Below, one piece after another: positions 6,805 to 44,705 of a DNA stretch of 64,000 nucleotides. The notes beneath the pieces are model-generated. The model did no database searches, had not been told where the DNA came from, and saw only the letters and a program-made list of their open reading frames with translations. This stretch comes from a virus, in the IMG/VR virus record IMGVR_UViG_3300027749_000038. One strand, written 5' to 3'. Each line of letters starts with the position of its first letter. Positions within the stretch are counted from its first letter, which is position 1. Made by a program: the position numbers and the translations under genes.

Positions 6805-7041
6805 ATGAGAATAATTGTACAACCGGAAATTGTAATAGAATTGGATGAAGTAACCATTACTCATATCAATGACTCGGCTAGAGATCAAAGAATTTCCGCT
6901 AAAGTAAGTGGTTTACAACGTTCTGTGTTGCTGTGGGGTCCAGAAGAATATAACGGACATGAAGCTAAAAACTGGACCGATGAAACAGCTTTTCTCAAAC
7001 TTTTAGAAAAGCTTTCTTTAAAAGCAGTTCCTTTTCTTTAA
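6805..7041 (+). CDS. Hypothetical protein
   Basis: 78-aa ORF preceded by TATAAATA (6780-6787) and ATAAGTA (6793-6799). Confidence 0.6.
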   Translation: MRIIVQPEIVIELDEVTITHINDSARDQRISAKVSGLQRSVLLWGPEEYNGHEAKNWTDETAFLKLLEKLSLKAVPFL

Positions 7042-7077: not shown

Positions 7078-7195
7078 GTGAATAGTTCTTTTACATTTGG
7101 GGGCGTATTGGTTTCGACTGAGCGCTGAAAACCTTAGTTGCAATCCGAGGAAGTCTGGTTGGCCTCGTTAAAATCTCTGGACAAAACAAATAAAT

Positions 7196-7297
7196 GCAAC
7201 TGATAATACAGAAGCACTCTTAGCTGAAGCAACGCACATCATCAACAACTTCGAGGACTACCTCGCAGAAGAAGAGATGTACGATCTCGCAGCCTAA
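7196..7297 (+). other. tmRNA tag reading frame: (A)ATDNTEALLAEATHIINNFEDYLAEEEMYDLAA*
   Basis: Resume codon GCA after aaaUAaau; 33 open codons ending LAA-TAA. Confidence 0.85.
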
Positions 7298-7505
7298 CAA
7301 ACAGAAATGGATCCTATTAAAATTTCTGGAGTACCACAATAGGTTTGAGTAAAATCGTGAACCTCAGGAAAAACAATCGAGAGGAGTTGGGCCCCTTGCA
7401 GTCCAACAGGTAGACCTTAACTAGTTAGCAGCCTATGGTCTTTAAGAGCTAACAAAATATGATTGTAGACGCTAAAGTCTAAGTTTTCAGGACAGCGGTT
7501 CAACT

Positions 7506-7706
7506 GAAATGCAGGGTCGGCTATTTGGAAACGAATAGTTCGTAAGGTGTATATCGGCGAACGGTTTAATATCCCAACACCGAGAGAAATCATAGAAATA
7601 TGAGACTCGTAGAGACTACCATCACCTACCTAAAGTAGAAATACTAAGGTAAAGGAATAGTCCAGACTACAAACACGTATGTGGTAGTGAAAACTATAGT
7701 AGTATG
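7506..7706 (+). mobile_element. Group I intron, 201 nt, no ORF, in the tmRNA T-loop
   Basis: 5' exon ends in U7505 and intron ends in G7706; P3 AGGTG 7545-7549 / CACCT 7623-7627; P7 GACTA 7614-7618 / TAGTC 7658-7662 in AGAGACTA and AAGGAATAGTCC contexts; GAAA-capped P2, P6a and P8 hairpins; removal restores the T-arm exactly. Confidence 0.92.
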
Positions 7707-7771
7707 CCGCTCGCCTCCACTCTTTAAAAATAGAGGGTTCAACTCATGTTACTAGAATAAGTAGCATAAGT

Positions 7772-8425
7772 ATGAACCCTCTTTTAATTATAGAATGCAA
7801 TTTTTGTAAATTACCTAAATCCAAGCGTAATATAAAAAGACATCAAGAAAAATGTTTTTATAATCCTTCTTGTTTTATTTTTTGCAAAACTTGCAACAAA
7901 CAACTTTTTGCTAAAAAGAAATTTTGTAATAATTCATGTGCTGCAAAATTCACCAATACAACAAGAACAGTTGACAGATCCTATATAACAGACTCTTGGA
8001 AAGAAAATATTAGTAATAAAAATAAACAAAATTGGAAAGAAGGAAAGTTGACATATTCTCAAAAAAGATTATTTTCTTCAAAGATAGAAAGAGAAATAGT
8101 TGCTCATTTTAAGAAAAAGTTTCCAAGAGACAAATGGAAAAGTGGAGGTAGATTGGCCTTGAATGATACAGAAAATTTAAGCAGAGATTTGTGGTCTGAT
8201 AAGCTTAAAATATGTTTCGAATATGATGGAATATGGCATTTTAAAGACATATACGGTCAATTAAACAAAAAACAAATAAAAGATAACTTATTCGAACTGT
8301 GGTGTATTAACAACAATTATAGGTTGATACGAGTGGATGAAGATTCTTATAAAAATATACAGCAAATTGAAGATTTGATTTATAACAATTATAATAATAT
8401 TATTAAAATAGGAGACAGATATTAA
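7772..8425 (+). mobile_element. Free-standing endonuclease with a Vsr/EDxHD-like nuclease domain and Cys-rich N-terminus
   Basis: N-terminal CxxC, CKTC and FCNNSCAA motifs; C-terminal RDLW...ICFEYDGIWHF...KD...NNYRLIRV. Confidence 0.75.
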
Positions 8426-8434
8426 CTCTTCCTC

Positions 8435-8450
8435 CCCCTCGCCTCCACCA
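8435..8450 (+). repeat. Duplicated tmRNA 3' end with encoded CCA
   Basis: ctcgcctccac at 8438-8448 is identical to 7710-7720; this copy continues to ...CCA. Confidence 0.85.
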
Positions 8451-8541
8451 TTTTTATTTTAATTGGAGATATACTTCTCCATAAGCTTCTAAAAAAAGAG
8501 TTTCAAAATCTTTCATATCTCTTTACTTAGTGTCAATTAAA

Positions 8542-8549
8542 TATAAATA
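8542..8549 (+). promoter_or_regulatory. T4-type late promoter
   Basis: Exact TATAAATA 6 nt before ATG 8556. Confidence 0.7.
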
Positions 8550-8555
8550 TACAAT

Positions 8556-10127
8556 ATGGCTTATACTAATCATTTTTGGAAAAAAATACAGCAACAATCA
8601 AAAAAGTCTACATTATCAGAAATGTATCGAATGGTTGTAGAAAATGAAAACGTGGCTTTATATTCTAAAGACATTGGAGATTCTACAGTTATCCCACCAG
8701 CTCCGGAAGGTATTGATAAAGTAACTGTTGTTTCTAAAGATTATTTGCCTAAAATTAAATCTTTGTCTAAATTTCAAAACACTCAACAAGAAGGTATTGT
8801 GGTTAAAATTTTAAAAGACAAGGCACATATTTCAGCTAAATATCATAATGTTTTAATACCAGTAATTAAAAATGCTGTCGAATTGTCTGGTTACGAACAT
8901 GTCAAAGAGTTGTTTGAATATAGTCTACAATTAGGTGGATTGTTTGATATTTTAAAGGAAAATAATTATAATGTAATTTCAGCTGTTGTTGAATCTTTAA
9001 ACCAATTCTTAAAAAATCAGGAAAAATTAAACATTGTGGATAGTGGTTTGCAACCATTTTTGTTAACTTTATTATCAGATCGTACACAGTTTGCTAGTAC
9101 ACAAACCGGCCCCGGAGAATTATATCTTGTCCTATTTTCTAACGCTACAACTGCAGGGGCTAGTTCTGGTGGACAAAAATCTGGTGACTTAGAAGTAGAT
9201 GGACAAAAAATAGAACTCAAGTCATCAGGTGCTAGAATGGGAGGAGGGTCTAGTACTTTTGTAGGCCAGTCTAACGCAAATATATCCAAATATTTGAAGT
9301 CTAAAAATCGCAATTATGCCGATTCAGATTTTTTTGAAAAGGAAAAAGCTGAATTGTGCGATCGTTTAAGTGATTTGGTAGTACAAAATAAAAATGTTCA
9401 AAATTTTCTTAGTACGTCTAAACAAATGGTAGAGACTGATGAAATACATTCTATGGTCATCAAGGGGTTTGAATCAGGTATATTCAATCCATTGGCAAAG
9501 ATATTGGCTTCTAGTCCGAATGCAACTTGGGAAATGTTGGTAACTGGAACTGGGACTTTGGCAAAAAAAACTGGTAAACCTTTAAATTATTTTATATTAA
9601 ACAAATTGCGAGAAATAAAAAATGAACACATAAACGAACAACCCACAAATATTTTTGATGAAGTACCGACCAAAGACCAAGCCAATTTAGTTTATTTATT
9701 GGCAAATACTTTTAATATTTTAAAAAGACATCCAGAAGTTGCAAATCAGGTAACAAAGGAGGATCTTATTCAAGTTATTTATTATACCAACAGTTATTCA
9801 GAAGAAGAGTGTTCTGGATTTGATTATTCCATAATAAACGATCTGACACATTATTTTTCAAGTTACACAACAGAACAAATACTGAATTTGTCTTCTGGCA
9901 GATTATTAAACTTGATAGGAGCAATGCATTTGGTTTCATATACCCAGGAACAAAAATTTAATAAATTAATGTTTTTAGAAAAGACCACCGGAAAAGTTGC
10001 AATTTTTGATGCACCTATGACAGTAGAAGATGGTTTAAATGTTTGTAAAAGAACAGACATTACCGTAGACCCGCGAGTTGATTCAGATTATGGTGTCTCG
10101 TGCAAATATTACTATAAACCTTCTTGA
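8556..10127 (+). CDS. Hypothetical protein, possible PD-(D/E)xK nuclease domain
   Basis: GPGELYL...SGDLEVDGQKIELKSSG fits D-x8-E-x-K. Confidence 0.45.
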   Translation: MAYTNHFWKKIQQQSKKSTLSEMYRMVVENENVALYSKDIGDSTVIPPAPEGIDKVTVVSKDYLPKIKSLSKFQNTQQEGIVVKILKDKAHISAKYHNVLIPVIKNAVELSGYEHVKELFEYSLQLGGLFDILKENNYNVISAVVESLNQFLKNQEKLNIVDSGLQPFLLTLLSDRTQFASTQTGPGELYLVLFSNATTAGASSGGQKSGDLEVDGQKIELKSSGARMGGGSSTFVGQSNANISKYLKSKNRNYADSDFFEKEKAELCDRLSDLVVQNKNVQNFLSTSKQMVETDEIHSMVIKGFESGIFNPLAKILASSPNATWEMLVTGTGTLAKKTGKPLNYFILNKLREIKNEHINEQPTNIFDEVPTKDQANLVYLLANTFNILKRHPEVANQVTKEDLIQVIYYTNSYSEEECSGFDYSIINDLTHYFSSYTTEQILNLSSGRLLNLIGAMHLVSYTQEQKFNKLMFLEKTTGKVAIFDAPMTVEDGLNVCKRTDITVDPRVDSDYGVSCKYYYKPS

Positions 10128-10691: not shown

Positions 10692-10949
10692 ATGAATTGC
10701 TTAACTTGTCAATCTTCTATTGAATTTGAACGTTTAGAAATTTTGCCAGACACTAAAGTATGTAGTTGCTGCGCTCGAGCTGGTAATGGGCAGAAATCCA
10801 AACCTCGTGGAGTGATGGTGTATACAGAAAAAACAAACGGTTTCATAGAAATCCACAGCAGTGATTCTTGGGAAAGAAATAAAAAATATTATGTTTCCCA
10901 GGGAGCTCGAAGTGCTGTTAAAAATTTTTCTAAGAATGTTTGTCGTTAG
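10692..10949 (+). CDS. DksA/TraR-type C4 zinc-finger protein
   Basis: CLTCQSSIEFERLEILPDTKVCSCC matches CxxC-I-x2-RL-x2-P-x4-CxxC. Confidence 0.7.
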   Translation: MNCLTCQSSIEFERLEILPDTKVCSCCARAGNGQKSKPRGVMVYTEKTNGFIEIHSSDSWERNKKYYVSQGARSAVKNFSKNVCR

Positions 10950-10954
10950 AAAAA

Positions 10955-11701
10955 TTATTTTTTAAAATTATACATTTTAATCCATTTTTGTATTAGAGAT
11001 TTTCCAACATTAAACATTAAAGCCATTTCTTTTCGTGTGTAAAGAGTAAAAGCTTTGTACAAAACATCTTTGGGTGGGATGGGTTTTGTTATACCAATTA
11101 TCTTTTTAGGGCTTAATTTACACTCCCGGAGCCATTCATATACTTTGCTTTTGCTAACTTGAAAATAGTTCATTATACCTTCTACACCTTCAGATTGAAA
11201 TAATTCTTTTACTTTAGATTTGTCACATCGATATTTGTATTTAGAATTTTTATTATTAATTTTTCCCAAATTTATGGAATATATTTTAAACCATTTACAT
11301 ACAGTCATATCAGATACTTTATAAAGAATTCCTATTTTTTTGTAAGACATGTTTTTGTTATAATATAAATTTAGCAGATCATCCTTGGGTGGCATCTTTT
11401 TGGTGATAGTACTTTTGATAAATGCATATTGCCATGAATTTAGTTGTTTTAAATTACCATAAGCCATTGCACTCAAACCCTTAACTATCCTGATGTTAGT
11501 GGGATGAATTTTATACAATAACAAATGGGCAAAAAAATGTTCTCTGGGAGTTAAATATACCAAATTTGAAGGATCATCTGATCCTCCTAAACCTCTAGGA
11601 CGAATGTGATGGCATTCAATATACCCGTCTCTCTCAAGAACTTTTCTAGAATTTATAAATTTCTTATACAATTGTTTATAGTAGTTTTGATTTTTAATCA
11701 T
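10955..11701 (-). mobile_element. Free-standing HNH homing endonuclease with C-terminal HTH repeats
   Basis: ECHHIRPRGLGGSDDPSNLVYLTPREHFFAHLLL; repeated VSDMTVCKWF / VSKSKVYEWL / VGKSLIQKWI helices. Start moved to 11701 because a minus-strand TATAAATA lies at 11707-11714. Confidence 0.88.
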
Positions 11702-11703
11702 AA

Positions 11704-11853
11704 ATATATTTATACTCAAACACCGTCTCTCTTTGGTCTATTCAAATTATCTCCGAAGATGCTCATAAAGAATGGAAAAAGTATAATCCGTATGGCCGTT
11801 ATACAGGCCGTGGTTCTGGCGTGCATCGCATGATGACTAGTACTTCACGATAA
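11704..11853 (+). pseudogene. Start-less displaced 3' half of a paralogue or allele of the 10692 Zn-finger gene
   Basis: Frame reads IQIISEDAHKEWKKY...GRGSGVHRMMTSTSR*, aligning with IEIHSSDSWERNKKY...GARSAVKNFSKNVCR*. Confidence 0.6.
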
Positions 11854-41783: not shown

Positions 41784-44705
41784 ATGGGCCGTAGACCTAA
41801 ACAGCAAGATGGTGAAGAAGAAGATGAATTCTCCTTAGATGATTTACAAGCAGAAGACATTTTAGTAGATGGTAAATTTTATAAGGGGAATGAGAATATT
41901 CTCCGTACCAAGAATGCGGTGTTCAAGTGGACTCCGGAGATGCAAGAGGATTTTAAACTTTGCCATAAAAGTATACTTCATTTTGCAGAAGCTCATTACA
42001 CCATTACTCATTTGGATAGAGGTAAGGAAAAAATCAGTCTTTACAAATACCAAAAACATCTTCTCAAAACTTTTAAAAAAGAACGTTTTACTATTTTGTT
42101 ATCATCCAGACAGTCTGGAAAGGCCTTAGATATTAATACAGTTATTCCCACACCTCAAGGAGAAGTGAAAATGGGAGATTTAAAAAACGGAGATCAAATT
42201 TACGGCTTAGACGGAAATGCTTATAATGTGGTTAAGGCTCATGATTTTTTATATGACAGAAATTGTTATAAGATAATATTTGACAATGGTGAAGAAATCA
42301 TAGCAGATGAAGATCATTTATGGTTTACACAAGAAAGATCTGAAAGAAAAAAGAATTTATCTGGTAGTGTAAAAACAACAAAAGAAATTTTAAATACCTT
42401 GACAGTTGGTGGTAAAAAAGAACCCAGACATCGCATACCCATGGCTAGAAACGGAATATTGGGTACAGAGGCAAAGTTGCCAATAGATCCATACATTCTC
42501 GGTTTATGGTTAGGTGATGGAAATACAGATGGAGCTAATATAACTGTAGGACCGCGAGATGTTGAGTTTTTATATGAAAAATTAAGTAATAATAAACAAT
42601 TTAATAAAATTACTTTATACCAATTTAAAGAACGTTTATGGGCTATAAATCCCACTCACACGGACAGAAAACAATCTTTATGGACTTGTTTAAAACAAAA
42701 TAATTTATTAGGAAACAAACACATACCAGACATATATTTTACAAGTTCCCGAGAACAACGTTTAGAATTATTAAGAGGTTTGATGGATTCAGATGGTTAT
42801 ATATCTCATTCAGGTCAAGCCAATTTTGACAATAGTAATTTAGAGTTAGGTTATCTAGTTGTAAAGCTCATCAGGGAATTGGGTTATAGTGTTACCTATA
42901 TCATACACACTCCAAAATTTAATGGCAAAGAATGTGCAGATTCTATGAGGGTTTGTTTTAAACCTCGAGAAGAAGTGGTGAGTATACCTTATAAAAAAAA
43001 TAAATTAAAATTAACAAATGAATTAAGAAGAAATACTTGGCATTATATTAAAGAAATAATTCCGGTAGAAAGCAGACCCGTAAGATGTATTACTGTGGAT
43101 AGTCCAGATAACTTATATCTTTGTGGCAATTCTCTTATTCCAACACATAACACCACCACCATGGCTATTTATGCTTTGTGGTATGTCTGTTTTCAACAAG
43201 ATAAGCGAGTAACTATTATTTCATACAAAGCAGATTCTGCTAAAGAAATTTTTGCTCGTATTAAAACTGCTTATGAAATGTTACCAATTTATCTCAAACC
43301 GAGTATTAAATCTTGGCGCAAAGATGGTTTAGATTTAACCAATGACTCTTCTATTACCATTTCCACAGGCCCTCGTGGCGGTTCTAGTAACTTATTGATT
43401 ATTGATGAAATGGCTTTCTGTCCTCCAGAAGACATGGCAGAGCTCTGGAGATCTTCTATTCCAATTATTATTCAATCGCAGAAGTCTCAAATTATTTTAA
43501 TCAGTACTGCTAACGGAACCGATAATAAATTTTATCAACTCTGGCAAATTGCTCAAAAATCAAATAGTATGTGGCATCCAGAACGAGTAGATTGGTGGGA
43601 TGTTCCGGGTCGAGATGAAGCCTGGAAAGCAGATGCTGTAGAATTGTTAGCTTCTGAAGGGAGGGGCCAAGAAGACTTTGATCAAGAATTTGGTAACCAG
43701 TTTATAACTCCAGGCAGATCTGTTGTAGATCCAGATTTACTAGAACAATTAAAAAATTGTCCAGAACCTAGTATGGTTTTAGATGAAGGCAAATATTTAA
43801 TATATAAAATGCCAGAGGTGGGAAGACATTATGTAATGGGGGTAGACGTGGGAGAAGGTATTGGTCGTTCTAATACAGTGGCTCAGGTTTTTGATATAAC
43901 TAATTTACAAGAAATAGAACAGGTAGCAGTTTATGCTTCTAATACTATTAGCCCATATCATTTTGGTACTCGTTTATTAGGAGTTTTGAATGACTGGGGT
44001 AGACCACCAGTGTTAATTGAAAATAATAATAACGGCAATCAGGTTATAGATGTCGTATTTCATACTCACAACTATGAAAATTTAGTTTCTTACACTTTAG
44101 AAGGAAATAGTGTTCATTATAATACTAAGAACCGTAAAGGTATTCATAGTCATACAACTACTAGATATAATGGAGTTAGTAATTTTAGATATTGGTGTAA
44201 TAGTTTAAGAGCCATTAAATTTTATGATCCAGAAACTATTAGAGAACTTCATACTTTTGTAAGATTGCCTAATCAAACCTATAGTAAACAAACTAAAGAA
44301 GATTTAGATGATAGAGTATTTGGTTGTATTTGGGCTTTGTTTATTTTAAATCCTAGTATAGTTCAAAATTATTTTCAAATAATTGATATGGATGATCAGG
44401 GAAGACCTAAAGAAATGGTTTCTTTGTATGATAATAAAGATTTATTAAAACAAAGTCCATTATTGGTGGGTGGTTCTGGGTTGTTTCGAAGAAATAGGGT
44501 AATTAATACTATGCCAGTGATGATTAATCCTACTCCTCAAAACGAGCAAGATAACGAAGCTCGTCAATTATGGAATTGGTTGCATACAGTCGCATATGAT
44601 GATCGAAATATAGATCCCTACAAACCAGCGGAGCCAGAATTTATGACTGCAGATGCCTTGGAAGGAATGTATAAAGAAGACTATAAACCAATTATATTAT
44701 TTTAA
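41784..44705 (+). CDS. gp17: Terminase large subunit with a cis intein
   Basis: LYKYQ, SRQSGK|...|TTT Walker A, LLIIDEMAF, ISTANG, FDQEF, MGVDVGEG, IENN, DDRV. Confidence 0.93.
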   Translation: MGRRPKQQDGEEEDEFSLDDLQAEDILVDGKFYKGNENILRTKNAVFKWTPEMQEDFKLCHKSILHFAEAHYTITHLDRGKEKISLYKYQKHLLKTFKKERFTILLSSRQSGKALDINTVIPTPQGEVKMGDLKNGDQIYGLDGNAYNVVKAHDFLYDRNCYKIIFDNGEEIIADEDHLWFTQERSERKKNLSGSVKTTKEILNTLTVGGKKEPRHRIPMARNGILGTEAKLPIDPYILGLWLGDGNTDGANITVGPRDVEFLYEKLSNNKQFNKITLYQFKERLWAINPTHTDRKQSLWTCLKQNNLLGNKHIPDIYFTSSREQRLELLRGLMDSDGYISHSGQANFDNSNLELGYLVVKLIRELGYSVTYIIHTPKFNGKECADSMRVCFKPREEVVSIPYKKNKLKLTNELRRNTWHYIKEIIPVESRPVRCITVDSPDNLYLCGNSLIPTHNTTTMAIYALWYVCFQQDKRVTIISYKADSAKEIFARIKTAYEMLPIYLKPSIKSWRKDGLDLTNDSSITISTGPRGGSSNLLIIDEMAFCPPEDMAELWRSSIPIIIQSQKSQIILISTANGTDNKFYQLWQIAQKSNSMWHPERVDWWDVPGRDEAWKADAVELLASEGRGQEDFDQEFGNQFITPGRSVVDPDLLEQLKNCPEPSMVLDEGKYLIYKMPEVGRHYVMGVDVGEGIGRSNTVAQVFDITNLQEIEQVAVYASNTISPYHFGTRLLGVLNDWGRPPVLIENNNNGNQVIDVVFHTHNYENLVSYTLEGNSVHYNTKNRKGIHSHTTTRYNGVSNFRYWCNSLRAIKFYDPETIRELHTFVRLPNQTYSKQTKEDLDDRVFGCIWALFILNPSIVQNYFQIIDMDDQGRPKEMVSLYDNKDLLKQSPLLVGGSGLFRRNRVINTMPVMINPTPQNEQDNEARQLWNWLHTVAYDDRNIDPYKPAEPEFMTADALEGMYKEDYKPIILF
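42123..43151 (+). mobile_element. Class 3 intein (343 aa) with LAGLIDADG endonuclease
   Basis: Starts Ala (ALDINT); ADEDHLW, VRCITV and IPTHN give the W-C-T triplet; LGLWLGDG and LLRGLMDSDG motifs; +1 Thr. Confidence 0.9.

Follow-up and report, generated by a model that had tools for sequence, protein, structure and literature searches.

A phage tmRNA gene probably occupied by a group I intron and a free-standing nuclease gene that carry their own 3' gene end

Why does a phage tmRNA gene appear to end twice? In the stretch of phage DNA analysed here (IMG/VR record IMGVR_UViG_3300027749_000038; 64,000 nucleotides, hereafter the window), a tmRNA (ssrA) gene interrupted by an intron is followed by a nuclease gene, and pieces of a second tmRNA 3' end lie on either side of that nuclease gene (Table 1; related loci carry L numbers). 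Based on the sequence features described below, we propose that positions 7099-8450 are probably a tmRNA gene occupied by a composite, collaborative-homing cassette with its own 3' gene end. The cassette would consist, in order, of a variant T-arm, an intron, a replacement 3' exon, a hairpin spacer and a gene for a zinc-finger/Vsr-fold nuclease. The resident 3' end would have been displaced to the far side of the nuclease gene, where it would persist as a ghost without function.

Table 1. Coordinates of the features assigned at the tmRNA locus of the window.
Feature	Position	Strand	Basis or remark
tmRNA (ssrA) exon 1	7099..7505	+	RF00023 match
ORF-less group I intron, type A, 201 nt	7506..7706	+	After 7th T-loop nucleotide
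Replacement 3' exon (putative): CCGCT, CGCCTCC, discriminator A, C	7707..7720	+	T-stem pairing, covariation
Spacer tctttaaaaataga	7721..7734	+	Between working 3' end and 5' ghost piece
Predicted hairpin, ~21 bp	7732..7782	+	Left arm holds 5' ghost piece; right arm covers start codon (7772-7774)
5' ghost piece GGGTTCAACTC	7735..7745	+	T-stem 5' strand, T-loop and first stem nucleotide of allele B
Two ATAAGTA motifs, promoter-like	7757-7763, 7766-7772	+	Loop and right arm of hairpin
Free-standing homing-endonuclease-like gene, type A, 217 aa	7772..8425	+	AlphaFold2 model, VIA-align
Right junction ctcttcctc	8426..8434	+
3' ghost	8435..8450	+	CCCCT, CGCCTCC, discriminator A and CCA of resident allele B
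Resident downstream flank	8451..8555	.	Proposed right-hand homology arm

The first exon comprises the 5' acceptor strand GGGGGCG, the tag frame, the pseudoknot region, the T-stem strand AGCGG and the T-loop TTCAACT, and ends ...acaGCGGTTCAACT at 7505. Positions 7107-7506 score 65.7 bits against RF00023 (gathering threshold 47), and the alignment breaks off in the T-loop. Exon 1 is 97.5% identical to that of L004 and 85-90% identical to those of nuclease-free relatives. Because of the intron, ARAGORN did not call this gene in the window. The tag frame, which starts at GCA and closes with ...MYDLAA-TAA, has an ending typical of tmRNA and is unusually long for a tag (33 codons). The acceptor stem pairs GGGGGCG (7099-7105) with CGCCTCC (7712-7718), including a G3-U pair. 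After removal of 7506-7706, AGCGG and CCGCT close the 7-nt loop TTCAACT, which restores a 5-bp T-stem. By its RF00023 score, acceptor and T-arm pairing and tag frame, 7099-7720 reads as a tmRNA gene.

The 201-nt insert reads as a group I intron by its splice-site nucleotides, by the exons that its removal restores and by its core pairings. It is bordered by U7505 at -1 and a terminal G7706, contains no ORF, and its excision yields exactly the intron-less T-arm of L014. The guide GGUCG pairs with exon CGACU in L031 and L032, with one mismatch in the window as judged by eye. An alignment of the core with three RF00028-positive tmRNA introns and two tRNA introns (tRNA-Leu/Arg) gave 21 consensus pairs, 11 of which show compensatory changes; P7 (GACUA/UAGUC) is invariant and P3 is also common to the set. 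Over 58-78 nt, the intron is 80-83% identical to phage tRNA introns. RF00028 itself did not match this intron at E<=10 in the window or at E<=1 in L031 and L032. The two tRNA introns intended as positive controls, L029 (an annotated 286-nt tRNA-Arg) and L030 (an interrupted tRNA-Leu, read by eye), went undetected by it as well.

A survey of bacterial genomes lists 883 sequences of tmRNA T-loop group I introns at four subsites; it describes intron-internal LAGLIDADG genes only (in 23 of 844 introns) and makes no mention of free-standing nucleases or duplicated 3' ends (PMC11915505). The intron in the window resembles those in its T-loop site, preceding U and terminal G. Its location after loop nucleotide 7 appears to equal the rare subsite 8 of the survey (numbering inferred), and its length of 201 nt is far below the mean of 414 bp given there for the newly found intron forms (PMC11915505).

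Two candidate 3' ends compete for this T-arm, and the proximal one fits it. CCGCT of exon 2 pairs perfectly with AGCGG at 7494-7498. The T-stem strands covary among alleles, with GCGG/CCGC in the window and L014, GGAG/CTCC in L031 and L032, and GGGG/CCCC in the nuclease-free alleles, which points to the proximal exon as the working partner. This exon does not encode CCA. The sequence that follows it starts with (c)tcttt or a ttttt-like run, as it also does in L004, L019, L022, L031 and L032.

The preliminary description of the window had noted ggttcaactc at 7736-7745 and ctcgcctccacCA at 8438-8450, and had proposed that these are parts of a second T-arm/acceptor allele that the nuclease ORF interrupts. 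Both are present at these positions, and alignment of the ssrA loci of relatives confirms that the short matches belong to tmRNA and lengthens them: the 5' piece is 11 nt from 7735, and the 3' piece begins with CCCCT at 8435 and reads CCCCTCGCCTCCACCA (8435-8450). When joined, the pieces are exactly the T-arm and working 3' end of intact, intron-less and nuclease-free tmRNA genes of related uncultured phages (L002, L003, L006, L016 and L018), four of which (L002, L003, L016 and L018) read acaGGGGTTCAACTCCCCTCGCCTCCACCAtt. In G001/L006, whose tmRNA is 87% identical, the equivalent of window position 7505 is joined directly to that of 8435. The 5' piece matches the intact L002, L003 and L006 alleles over all 11 nt, with the reservation that its T-stem strand in the window is aGGG and not the full aGGGG of the intact allele. 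Over 18-20 nt, the 3' ghost shows 100% identity to L002 and L018. In relatives that have no nuclease gene this sequence runs on from the T-loop without a break, and L004 has an identical copy directly after the stop codon of its nuclease.

These matches are not due to chance. CTCGCCTCCAC occurs in exactly two copies in the 64 kb (0.14 expected, allowing at most one mismatch). At the base composition of the window, the probability of the 11-mer falling within 60 nt of the start of the nuclease ORF is ~6e-6, and that of the 16-mer falling within 150 nt of its stop is ~7e-10. Direct repeats flanking the nuclease gene are also significant in the window, L004, L019, L025 and L031 (equalled in 0-2 of 200 shuffles). 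At the right junction, the stop codon and the following nucleotides read tAACTC, a repeat of the AACTC that ends the 5' piece, and the window has ~6 extra nt at 8430-8435 (ttcctc or an equivalent placement). The stop codon of L019 runs straight into AACTCCCCTCGCC... with AACTC at both junctions, so that the nuclease unit is flanked there by a 3-5 nt repeat. The split had been placed at the same T-loop position as the intron; it lies at that position or within a few nt of it, with an exact breakpoint that is ambiguous by 1-5 nt.

Could the distal end be the working one? Under this alternative, a single long intron would span 7506-8434, with its 3' splice site at ~8434/8435, the nuclease ORF after P9 and the proximal exon 2 internal. 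Endonuclease ORFs after P9 are reported in tmRNA introns (PMC11915505), and CCA is encoded by the ghost only, but we consider this arrangement very improbable. No G precedes the ghost anywhere (window ...cctc/CCCCT; L019 ...taa/CTCCCCT; L004 ...tga/CCCCT), whereas a terminal G does stand before the proximal exon, which covaries with the upstream T-stem strand in three allele types; CCCCT of the ghost would mispair with AGCGG. Ghosts are decayed or missing in L022, L026 and L032, and the short forms L015 and L014 are complete genes. Given the missing terminal G and the covariation in favour of the proximal exon, a long intron with a distal splice site was rejected.

The nuclease gene begins 52 nt past the 3' exon. 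Its protein has N-terminal zinc-binding modules and a C-terminal domain (residues about 97-209) that was modelled by AlphaFold2 with the rest of the 217 residues (pLDDT 91.6). Structural comparison of the model with VIA-align gave Z scores of 10.7 to Vsr (1cw0_A; 120 residues aligned, rmsd 5.0), 8.7 to 3hrl_A and 7.9 to I-Bth0305I (3r3p_B; 94 of 98 residues, rmsd 3.6 A), values of 8-11 that are moderately above background. Foldseek paired the model with Vsr at a probability of 0.96-0.99 and E of 0.016-0.05, and returned no PDB match at E<=0.001; the call of a Vsr fold is therefore that of VIA-align. At the sequence level, the protein matched no Pfam family, and against PDB sequences the zinc fingers alone were matched and the nuclease domain was not; neither collection yielded a match of this domain to a characterised homing endonuclease. 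The model thus supports a nuclease fold of the Vsr/I-Bth0305I type, in agreement with the Vsr/EDxHD-like endonuclease proposed from the sequence. Residues R138-D139, E150-Y-D152-G, H156, K170-D171 and R187-x-D189-E190 are invariant in the family; conserved acidic and His residues are among them, and a correspondence with the EDxHD motif is possible.

I-Bth0305I (PDB 3R3P), the prototype EDxHD homing endonuclease with a Vsr-like catalytic domain, is likewise modular with separate DNA-binding parts, and its C-terminal domain can be aligned with the one modelled here. Unlike the intron-encoded I-Bth0305I, to which it has no sequence-level match, the nuclease in the window is encoded by a free-standing gene and has C2H2-type N-terminal fingers and the motif R-D ... 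E-x-D-G-x-W-H ... K-D ... R-x-D-E. Among 43 family members, C2H2 fingers were identified in 20, NUMOD3 in five and DUF559 (weakly) in two. A Vsr fold together with zinc-finger and NUMOD3 modules is typical of homing endonucleases and counts in favour of a homing cassette.

The family has at least 219 metagenomic homologues. All 23 viral IMG/VR loci in which a homologue reaches 39% identity or more have a tmRNA or tmRNA-like gene nearby (17 called at standard settings, the rest with relaxed settings or by eye), and a tmRNA gene also adjoins the full-length close homologues in the Logan, ENA and JGI loci examined. The tmRNA genes beside these nucleases are standard, intron-containing or permuted. 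No tmRNA was detectable near the distant or partial homologues L010-L013 and L059-L062, which restricts the association to the closer family.

The locus had been viewed as a frozen intermediate, but the relatives show that its layout is not unique: the same cassette (intron, replacement 3' exon, hairpin and nuclease) occurs in at least five different flanks at 78-91% identity, and several further loci carry another intron/nuclease allele. Identity of the A-type cassette to the window is 78-83% in L019, L031 and L032, and 91% over the part retained in L035. The flank of L019 is of the L002 type (84% over 1243 nt), and all that it has in common with the downstream region of the window is the 18-nt ghost, while the flank of L035 is of the L006 type (96.8%). 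L004 has a backbone that is 97% identical to the window (upstream 97.3%, exon 1 97.5%, downstream ORF 96.4%) and the same ghost, with a different intron (RF00028, 91 bits) and a nuclease of 56% protein identity whose DNA aligns at 75% over the 3' half only. The A nuclease is paired with the A intron at four loci (the window, L019, L031 and L032), and the B nuclease with the B intron at five loci listed (L004, L022-24 and L025-26). The B intron is inserted 6-7 nt upstream of the A site, where the T-loop begins on its 5' side; GGGT is repeated at both ends of this intron, so that its exact boundary is ambiguous. In L015 it occurs without nuclease or ghost. Known phages gave no near match to the window over 25 kb, and a search with the downstream 523-aa protein found no related viral loci.

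The recurrence also bears on whether the layout reflects mis-assembly of two population variants, or the attL and attR sites of an island whose integrase targets ssrA. The 3' ends of tmRNA genes are classic integration sites at which displaced ends pile up (PMC11915505), and populations with and without the cassette clearly coexist. As in such islands, the incoming element here would supply a new 3' end and leave the old one at its far side. Unlike them, it is a 0.9 kb element with a nuclease and a T-loop junction that includes an intron; no integrase lies between or beside the repeats, the nuclease being the sole ORF between them, and a repeat unit split by an ORF is not a product of integration. 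Independent assemblies (JGI, ENA, Logan and IMG/VR) from different samples show the same layout in divergent sequences. Both explanations are exceedingly improbable and were rejected, att sites for want of an integrase and mis-assembly because independent assemblies agree.

The two ghost halves probably have different histories. The acceptor of the 3' ghost follows the lineage (CGCCTCC; CGGGTCC in L031; CACCTCC in L021; CTGGTCC), and the 3' ghost is decayed or mutated in L026 and L032 and absent from L022, as expected of a displaced, unselected remnant. The flank behind it is also that of the lineage: from the ghost onward, identity is 94.8% to L006 over 58 nt and 100% to L004 over 71 nt, and within 8451-8555 there remain 20 codons of a minus-strand gene, the full 143-aa version of which is present in L004 and L006. 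Since acceptor and downstream flank are lineage-specific, the 3' half appears to be the displaced resident 3' end. The 5' piece, in comparison, is identical in the A-type cassettes of L019 and L031 and has one compensated change in L032, and seems to travel with the cassette as a hairpin arm.

This hairpin has a predicted free energy of -27 to -30 kcal/mol (z -6.9 to -7.6; none of 200 shuffles was as stable). L019, L031 and L032 have kept it (z -4.4 to -5.9), with inner stems that differ, and the C-G to T-A covariation in L032 falls exactly within the ghost piece. The ATAAGTA motifs in it had been described as late-promoter motifs. No other 7-mer is as enriched as ATAAGTA in the 45 nt before ORF starts (8 copies against 0.32 expected). 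The motif mostly sits at -12 to -15 and is found ahead of the genes for tail sheath and tail fibre as well, which suggests a promoter-like role at gene starts; window-wide it is not enriched (15 observed, 18 expected). ATAAGTAAT or ATAAATAAT likewise precedes the nuclease ATG in L004, L019, L022, L025 and L031. In phage T4, a hairpin on read-through RNA hides the start codon of I-TevI and a late promoter lies inside that hairpin; I-TevI also represses its own gene at an operator that resembles its homing site. The arrangement in the window looks similar, with a stable hairpin over the ATG, promoter-like motifs in its loop and right arm, and an arm that resembles the presumed target. Read-through RNA from the tmRNA promoter might thus be translationally silent, and late transcripts that start inside the hairpin might express the nuclease.

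How did a T-arm fragment come to form this arm? It is possible, if doubtful, that the 3' ghost alone is a remnant and that the 5' piece is a functional mimic, either as a hairpin arm or as an operator for autorepression of the I-TevI kind. The strength and conservation of the hairpin, its compensatory change in L032 and the inclusion of the start codon and both promoter-like motifs are consistent with a mimic. So are the B-type cassettes, which form an analogous AU-rich 10-bp hairpin around the ATG that has no T-arm likeness. A hairpin arm need not equal a T-arm, however, and 11 nt of identity to the interrupted sequence would be unlikely unless copied.

We regard as unlikely the alternative, which follows the order of events given in the preliminary description, that both halves are true remnants of one event in the origin of the A type. 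The nuclease gene alone would have been captured at its own cleavage site in the T-loop, splitting an allele-B tmRNA, with the AACTC repeat as staggered-end fill-in; an intron-containing 3' region placed upstream by illegitimate recombination would then have rescued the gene, and the composite would have spread by homing. Both allele-B T-arm halves do flank the nuclease unit, the junctions of L019 have a 3-5 nt repeat, and chance would hardly make the 5' piece agree with the intact allele at 11 of 11 positions. The remodelled N-terminus of the A-type nuclease, which is without the first zinc finger of the B type, is also consistent with a rearrangement at this place. On the other side, the 5' piece is invariant across backbones and the 3' piece variable, so that in today's loci the two do not stem from a single local event. 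The 3' ghost occurs without the 5' piece in B-type cassettes, L021 and L025. The spacer/promoter region is common to A and B types, with the 5' piece resembling a ~32-nt insertion into it, and an extra illegitimate join is required. In the reading preferred here, the nuclease gene most likely once inserted into a T-loop at an early stage, and the 5' piece would be the fossil of that event, now retained as an arm of a putative regulatory hairpin; its conservation could be wholly due to that hairpin.

From the junctions and alleles we infer the following cleavage specificity, homing pathway and order of events. The nuclease would cut cassette-free tmRNA genes in or near the T-arm, the DNA of which is a natural 17-bp pseudopalindrome; the cut is expected in or next to GGGGTTCAACTCCCC, in empty alleles only. 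The break would be repaired from a cassette-bearing genome. Homology would be provided on the left by the tmRNA body and on the right by the old 3' end with its downstream flank, so that intron, spare 3' exon and nuclease gene would be copied together, and the tmRNA would still be functional after splicing. The occupied allele would be immune, because the intron interrupts the working target and the ghost is without its 5' half. In L031, L021 and L027 the acceptor in the working 3' exon is also that of the lineage. This would not be expected if a foreign 3' exon were simply imported; either the donors would have to belong to the same lineage, or gene conversion would have to have followed, or the end would have to have been duplicated locally at insertion.

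Collaborative homing of an ORF-less group I intron and a neighbouring free-standing endonuclease is known from the psbA intron and F-CphI of S-PM2, from T3/T7-like phages and from the ICP1 terminase (PMC6083498, PMC10055350), and the origin of the arrangement is stated to be unclear (PMC10055350). The locus in the window fits this scheme, as had been suggested: an ORF-less intron in a conserved gene adjoins a free-standing nuclease gene, each nuclease subtype is tied to one intron type, and the phages are related mosaics. The linkage of intron and nuclease is seen in the gene order and in the pairing of their subtypes, and cutting at the insertion site is suggested by the T-loop junctions. Here, unlike in the known cases, the host gene is an RNA gene, a spare 3' exon is carried while the native 3' end remains as a ghost, and the nuclease combines a Vsr fold with zinc fingers instead of an Endo VII, HNH or T5orf172 fold.

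The preliminary description knew of no such layout for tmRNA, which agrees with the literature searchable here, although the principle exists elsewhere. In fungal mitochondria, mobile-ORF hybrids of Allomyces macrogynus (atp6) and Glomus (atp6, atp9, cox2 and nad3) consist of a gene with a foreign C-terminus, an endonuclease ORF and the native C-terminus downstream (PMC3630166). The order of gene body, replacement 3' end, endonuclease ORF and native 3' end is the same in the window, where the native end also matches element-free relatives and the inserted end differs (CCGCT vs CCCCT). Unlike the mitochondrial hybrids, the unit in the phage includes an intron, and its replacement differs in the T-stem only, with an identical acceptor; just 14 nt are replaced because the tmRNA gene is non-coding.

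Looking across the family, we lean slightly towards a broader reading, in which an undescribed family of zinc-finger/Vsr-fold nucleases parasitises standard, intron-interrupted and circularly permuted phage tmRNA genes and spreads with replacement gene ends (3' in the window, 5' in L046 as read here), the displaced end serving as the downstream arm and then decaying. If so, such nucleases would be a major force shaping phage tmRNA genes beside introns and integrases, and the pseudopalindromic nuclease target in the T-arm region would make that region a hot spot common to them. A replacement-gene-end strategy known from fungal mitochondrial mobile ORFs would extend to a structured RNA gene in phages. 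The layout also explains why tmRNA finders miss or mis-end such genes and why stray acceptor/CCA fragments lie beside phage tmRNA genes. As a large family with a predictable target, the nucleases are candidate DNA-recognition scaffolds that combine zinc fingers with a Vsr-fold nuclease.

The alleles form a natural before/after set for studying how an ORF-less intron becomes linked to a free-standing nuclease: empty alleles with two T-stem types, intron-only, nuclease without intron, and two intron plus nuclease cassettes on 97%-identical backbones. Some layouts deviate. In L027, L053 and L054 the ghost follows the working 3' end and precedes the nuclease gene instead of lying behind it, and the nuclease gene is at the 5' end of the tmRNA gene in L040, L042 and L046, so that one mechanism may not cover all layouts. 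A second example of the principle lies 3 kb away in the window itself, where a protein gene with a replacement 3' half is followed by an HNH gene and by the native 3' half (identical to L003), which indicates that genes in this group of phages are invaded in this way.

The window derives from an uncultured AT-rich myovirus that encodes a tail sheath, a large terminase, a ribonucleotide reductase and a DnaB-type helicase, and a search of deposited phages did not find a close relative. The tmRNA gene sits between a 78-codon ORF (6805-7041) and a 523-codon ORF (8556-10127). It matches Rfam model RF00023 with 65.7 bits (threshold, 47), and the match ends abruptly in the T-loop, at 7505-7506. The acidic 33-codon tag frame (7196-7297), with LAA at its end, is conserved in the related viral and metagenomic loci L001, L003, L004 and L015, and its middle part is variant in L002. 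The preliminary description had a nuclease ORF splitting a second tmRNA 3' end (the "ghost") at the T-loop position of the intron; when the window was re-read, every element that it named was present where it had been placed.

Features of the tmRNA locus in the window
Feature	Coordinates	Description
tmRNA exon 1	7099-7505	5' acceptor strand GGGGGCG; 33-codon tag ending DLAA-stop; T-stem strand AGCGG; loop TTCAACT
Insert	7506-7706	201 nt
Exon 2 (proximal 3' exon)	7707-7720	CCGCT, CGCCTCC, A, C; CCA not encoded
Spacer		Between exon 2 and the 5' ghost piece
5' ghost piece	7735-7745	GGGTTCAACTC
Nuclease ORF	7772-8425	217 codons
Right junction		About 9 nt after the nuclease stop codon
3' ghost	8435-8450	CCCCT-CGCCTCC-A-CCA, then T-rich sequence

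Within the 64 kb there are exactly two occurrences of the 11-mer CTCGCCTCCAC, versus 0.14 expected with up to one mismatch. Given base composition, the probability of the upstream 11-mer near the ORF start is about 6e-6, and that of the downstream 16-mer near the nuclease stop about 7e-10. The same locus in related phages was retrieved by scanning viral and metagenomic contigs for sequence patterns. Uninterrupted tmRNA genes in L002, L003 (the same as L018), L006 (the record of L001) and L016 end in acaGGGGTTCAACTCCCCTCGCCTCCACCAtt, which is the two ghost pieces joined. In the nuclease-free relative G001/L006 (tmRNA 87% identical), the homologue of position 7505 runs directly into the homologue of 8435 onward. 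Because of this abutment, and because uninterrupted relatives carry the joined pieces, the ghost can be taken as a real allele that occurs in nature (allele B). The proposal of a second T-arm/acceptor allele is thus borne out by intact tmRNA genes of related phages, which have it as their 3' end.

The working tmRNA copy probably uses the proximal 3' exon. The T-stem formed by AGCGG of exon 1 and CCGCT of this exon pairs perfectly, and L014, a locus without intron and nuclease, carries exactly the spliced allele of the window (acaGCGGTTCAACTCCGCTCGCCTCCAC) uninterrupted; therefore, deleting the insert recreates a known intact gene. Three compensated T-stem types occur, that of the window included; cassette-bearing L031 and L032 have GGAG/CTCC, and "empty" alleles, which have neither intron nor nuclease, have GGGG/CCCC. 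Use of the ghost as a distal 3' splice site was ruled out, since no locus has a G directly 5' of it.

The insert is preceded by U, ends in G and is most likely a group I intron. Over its 3' third, it shares 80-83% identity with group I introns of phage tRNA-Arg and tRNA-Leu genes, and an alignment with both of these and three RF00028-positive tmRNA introns reveals common P3, P7 and neighbouring helices, in which 11 of 21 consensus pairs have compensatory changes. RF00028 itself did not match the insert, a miss that is uninformative because both tRNA-intron loci, the intended positive controls, were likewise missed.

Comparison among loci indicates that this cassette and the surrounding backbone have separate histories. 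We refer to the kind found in the window as A-type; its parts are intron, 3' exon, spacer, GGGTTCAACTC, hairpin and a nuclease starting MNPL. The backbone of L004 is nearly that of the window (97.3% identity upstream, 97.5% in exon 1 and 96.4% in the downstream ORF), and the two differ between the T-stem and the ghost. There, L004 has a group I intron unlike that of the window (RF00028, 91 bits) at the 5' edge of the T-loop, although the exact boundary of this B-type intron is ambiguous, its own 3' exon, and a nuclease that is 56% identical in protein, with DNA alignable (at 75%) only in the 3' half. Right after the nuclease stop codon comes a ghost identical to that of the window (CCCCTCGCCTCCACCA). 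Conversely, A-type cassettes lie in other flanks in L019, L031 and L032 (78-83% identity), and part of one, 91% identical, is kept in L035, the flank of which is L006-type (96.8%). Downstream, L019 is L002-type (84% over 1243 nt) and has only the 18-nt ghost in common with the window. L015 has a B-type intron alone, with CCA encoded and both nuclease and ghost absent. The same backbone with another cassette, the same cassette in other flanks and the lone B-type intron thus show that the histories are separate, and the ghost forms the right-hand cassette boundary.

L035 (1-900) is decayed: the 3' two-thirds of the A-type nuclease gene, the ghost and the L006-type flank are left, and where the tmRNA body, intron and nuclease-gene 5' part would be, there is unrelated coding sequence. 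In L015 (757-830), a tRNA-Gly gene begins 2 nt past the encoded CCA. In the window, the minus strand of 8451-8555 holds a 20-codon gene remnant (MKDFETLFLEA|YGEVYLQLK), with an in-frame internal deletion directly beside the ghost; the gene has 143 codons in L004 and is also whole in L006.

The two halves of the ghost behave differently. The acceptor of the 3' ghost varies with the backbone (CGCCTCC in the window, CGGGTCC in L031, CACCTCC in L021 and CTGGTCC in L027), and downstream of it comes the flank of the local empty allele. Mutations have altered it in L026 and L032, L025 has a shortened copy and L022 lacks it, as would be expected of a displaced, unselected native end. The 5' ghost piece stays constant among all A-type cassettes regardless of backbone and is missing from B-type ones. 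It forms the left arm of a hairpin of about 21 bp (7732-7782; -27 to -30 kcal/mol, z -6.9 to -7.6), with the ATG covered by its right arm. L019, L031 and L032 retain the hairpin with variable inner stems, and a C-to-T change that L032 has in the ghost piece is offset by G-to-A opposite. It is conceivable, if somewhat doubtful, that the 5' piece arose for functional reasons alone. An alternative, put forward in the preliminary description, is that the A-type nuclease gene was once captured in a T-loop break, before the composite spread; the 11-nt T-arm piece and a short AACTC repeat at both junctions of L019 suggest such an earlier step, which we nevertheless consider unlikely.

Two copies of ATAAGTA lie inside the hairpin. 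This is the most enriched 7-mer in the 45 nt upstream of ORF starts (8 observed versus 0.32 expected), also occurs 5' of the sheath and fibre genes, and mostly starts 12-15 nt 5' of the ATG; a -10-like late promoter at this distance would give hardly any leader. Leaderless mRNAs are one possible explanation, a role of the motif as a translation signal another. Strong enrichment of ATAAGTA, together with GTATAAA/TATAAAT, is seen upstream of many ORFs (e.g., 1982, 6775, 6793, 20093, 31636 and 34087). For I-TevI of phage T4, read-through RNA is silent and late transcripts begun inside a hairpin are translatable; the hairpin and ATAAGTA over the ATG in the window resemble this arrangement and could act analogously.

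The nuclease ORF probably encodes a homing-endonuclease-like protein of moderate fold similarity. Neither a Pfam search with the protein nor a PDB sequence search with its nuclease domain gave a match. The AlphaFold2 model of the 217 residues is confident (pLDDT 91.6), and in structural alignments of this predicted model residues ~97-209 resemble Vsr (Z 10.7), the DUF559-type nuclease 3hrl (Z 8.7) and the catalytic domain of I-Bth0305I (Z 7.9; 94 of 98 residues); Foldseek alone gave weak E-values. The N-terminal part contains C2H2-type zinc-binding modules. Among 43 relatives, 20 match C2H2 fingers, five NUMOD3 and two DUF559, and invariant residues are grouped in R-D, E-x-D-G-x-W-H, K-D and R-x-D-E.

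At least 219 metagenomic proteins belong to the family, and a tmRNA gene adjoins the nuclease gene in every readable locus with a full-length homologue. The tmRNA is standard with a T-loop intron in the window, L004, L019, L022-24, L025-26, L031 and L032-34, and standard without one in L021, L027, L053 and L054. The nuclease gene lies just upstream of a standard tmRNA in L040, L042 and L046. Circularly permuted tmRNAs occur in L009, L028, L037, L039, L041, L056 and L058; L047-52, listed with this class, have the tmRNA on the opposite strand, and in L038 the nuclease gene is inside the intervening segment. In an IMG/VR survey, all 23 loci at ≥39% identity had a tmRNA or tmRNA-like gene nearby (17 through ARAGORN or Rfam, three with ARAGORN at relaxed settings and three by eye), and a nearby tmRNA was not found for four distant 578-aa homologues. 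Such adjacency is what one expects of free-standing nucleases aimed at a neighbouring gene. In L038 (2150-3030), the acceptor piece ends ~75 nt before the ATG, and the nuclease ORF has an extended end (...RYWG-stop), the last codons of which overlap the tmRNA 5' strand GGGGGTA.

We propose that the nuclease would cut empty tmRNA genes within the T-arm or close to it; the DNA of this arm, AGGGG-TTCAACT-CCCCT, is a 17-bp pseudopalindrome, and the Vsr-fold enzyme I-Bth0305I is reportedly a homodimer acting on a pseudopalindromic site. Repair from a cassette-bearing genome would copy the entire interval that separates the tmRNA body from the old 3' end. The intron and replacement exon would keep the tmRNA functional and also interrupt the target, and the native end, displaced behind the nuclease gene, could serve as the right-hand homology arm in the next round and then decay.

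Several layouts are left unexplained by this model. In L031, L021 and L027, working exon and ghost have a lineage-specific acceptor in common, which needs same-lineage donors, gene conversion or local duplication. In L027 (1950-2000), L053 (1130-1240) and L054 (2290-2335), a ghost with T-loop, decayed stem and acceptor (CCA in L027 and L053) immediately follows the working 3' end of the tmRNA and precedes the nuclease gene instead of lying behind it; the L027 tmRNA is within an array of ~24 tRNA genes. L046 (2110-2990) has a mirror-image ghost, in which the tmRNA 5' end is duplicated: upstream of the nuclease gene are a remnant of a nuclease-gene 3' end, a spacer and the first ~25 nt of the tmRNA (GGGGGTGGTTTGGTTTTGAC), and downstream, this spacer recurs in full, together with the whole tmRNA. 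This suggests nuclease turnover.

T-loop group I introns of bacterial tmRNA genes are well documented; a survey (883 sequences, four subsites) reports LAGLIDADG genes inside 23 of 844 introns, and free-standing nucleases and duplicated 3' ends go unmentioned in it (PMC11915505). Phage protein genes are known to host ORF-less introns that home collaboratively with a nuclease encoded nearby (PMC6083498, PMC10055350), and in Allomyces and Glomus mitochondria endonuclease ORFs carry replacement gene ends, with the native end left downstream (PMC3630166). In the window locus, these already known principles come together with a new host gene, tmRNA, and a new nuclease family. Independent support comes from a protein gene of the window (10692-11853) that has the same layout of replacement end, nuclease and native end. 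The 5' half of a zinc-finger gene (10692-10949) is homologous to a gene of L003 and its 3' half is divergent; an HNH endonuclease gene follows (10955-11719, minus strand), then a start-less frame (~11710-11853) that nearly duplicates the 3' half of the intact L003 gene. Elsewhere in the window, the large terminase ORF (41784-44705) has 973 codons and matches terminase profiles in two separated blocks, and may carry an insertion, e.g., an intein or an extra domain.
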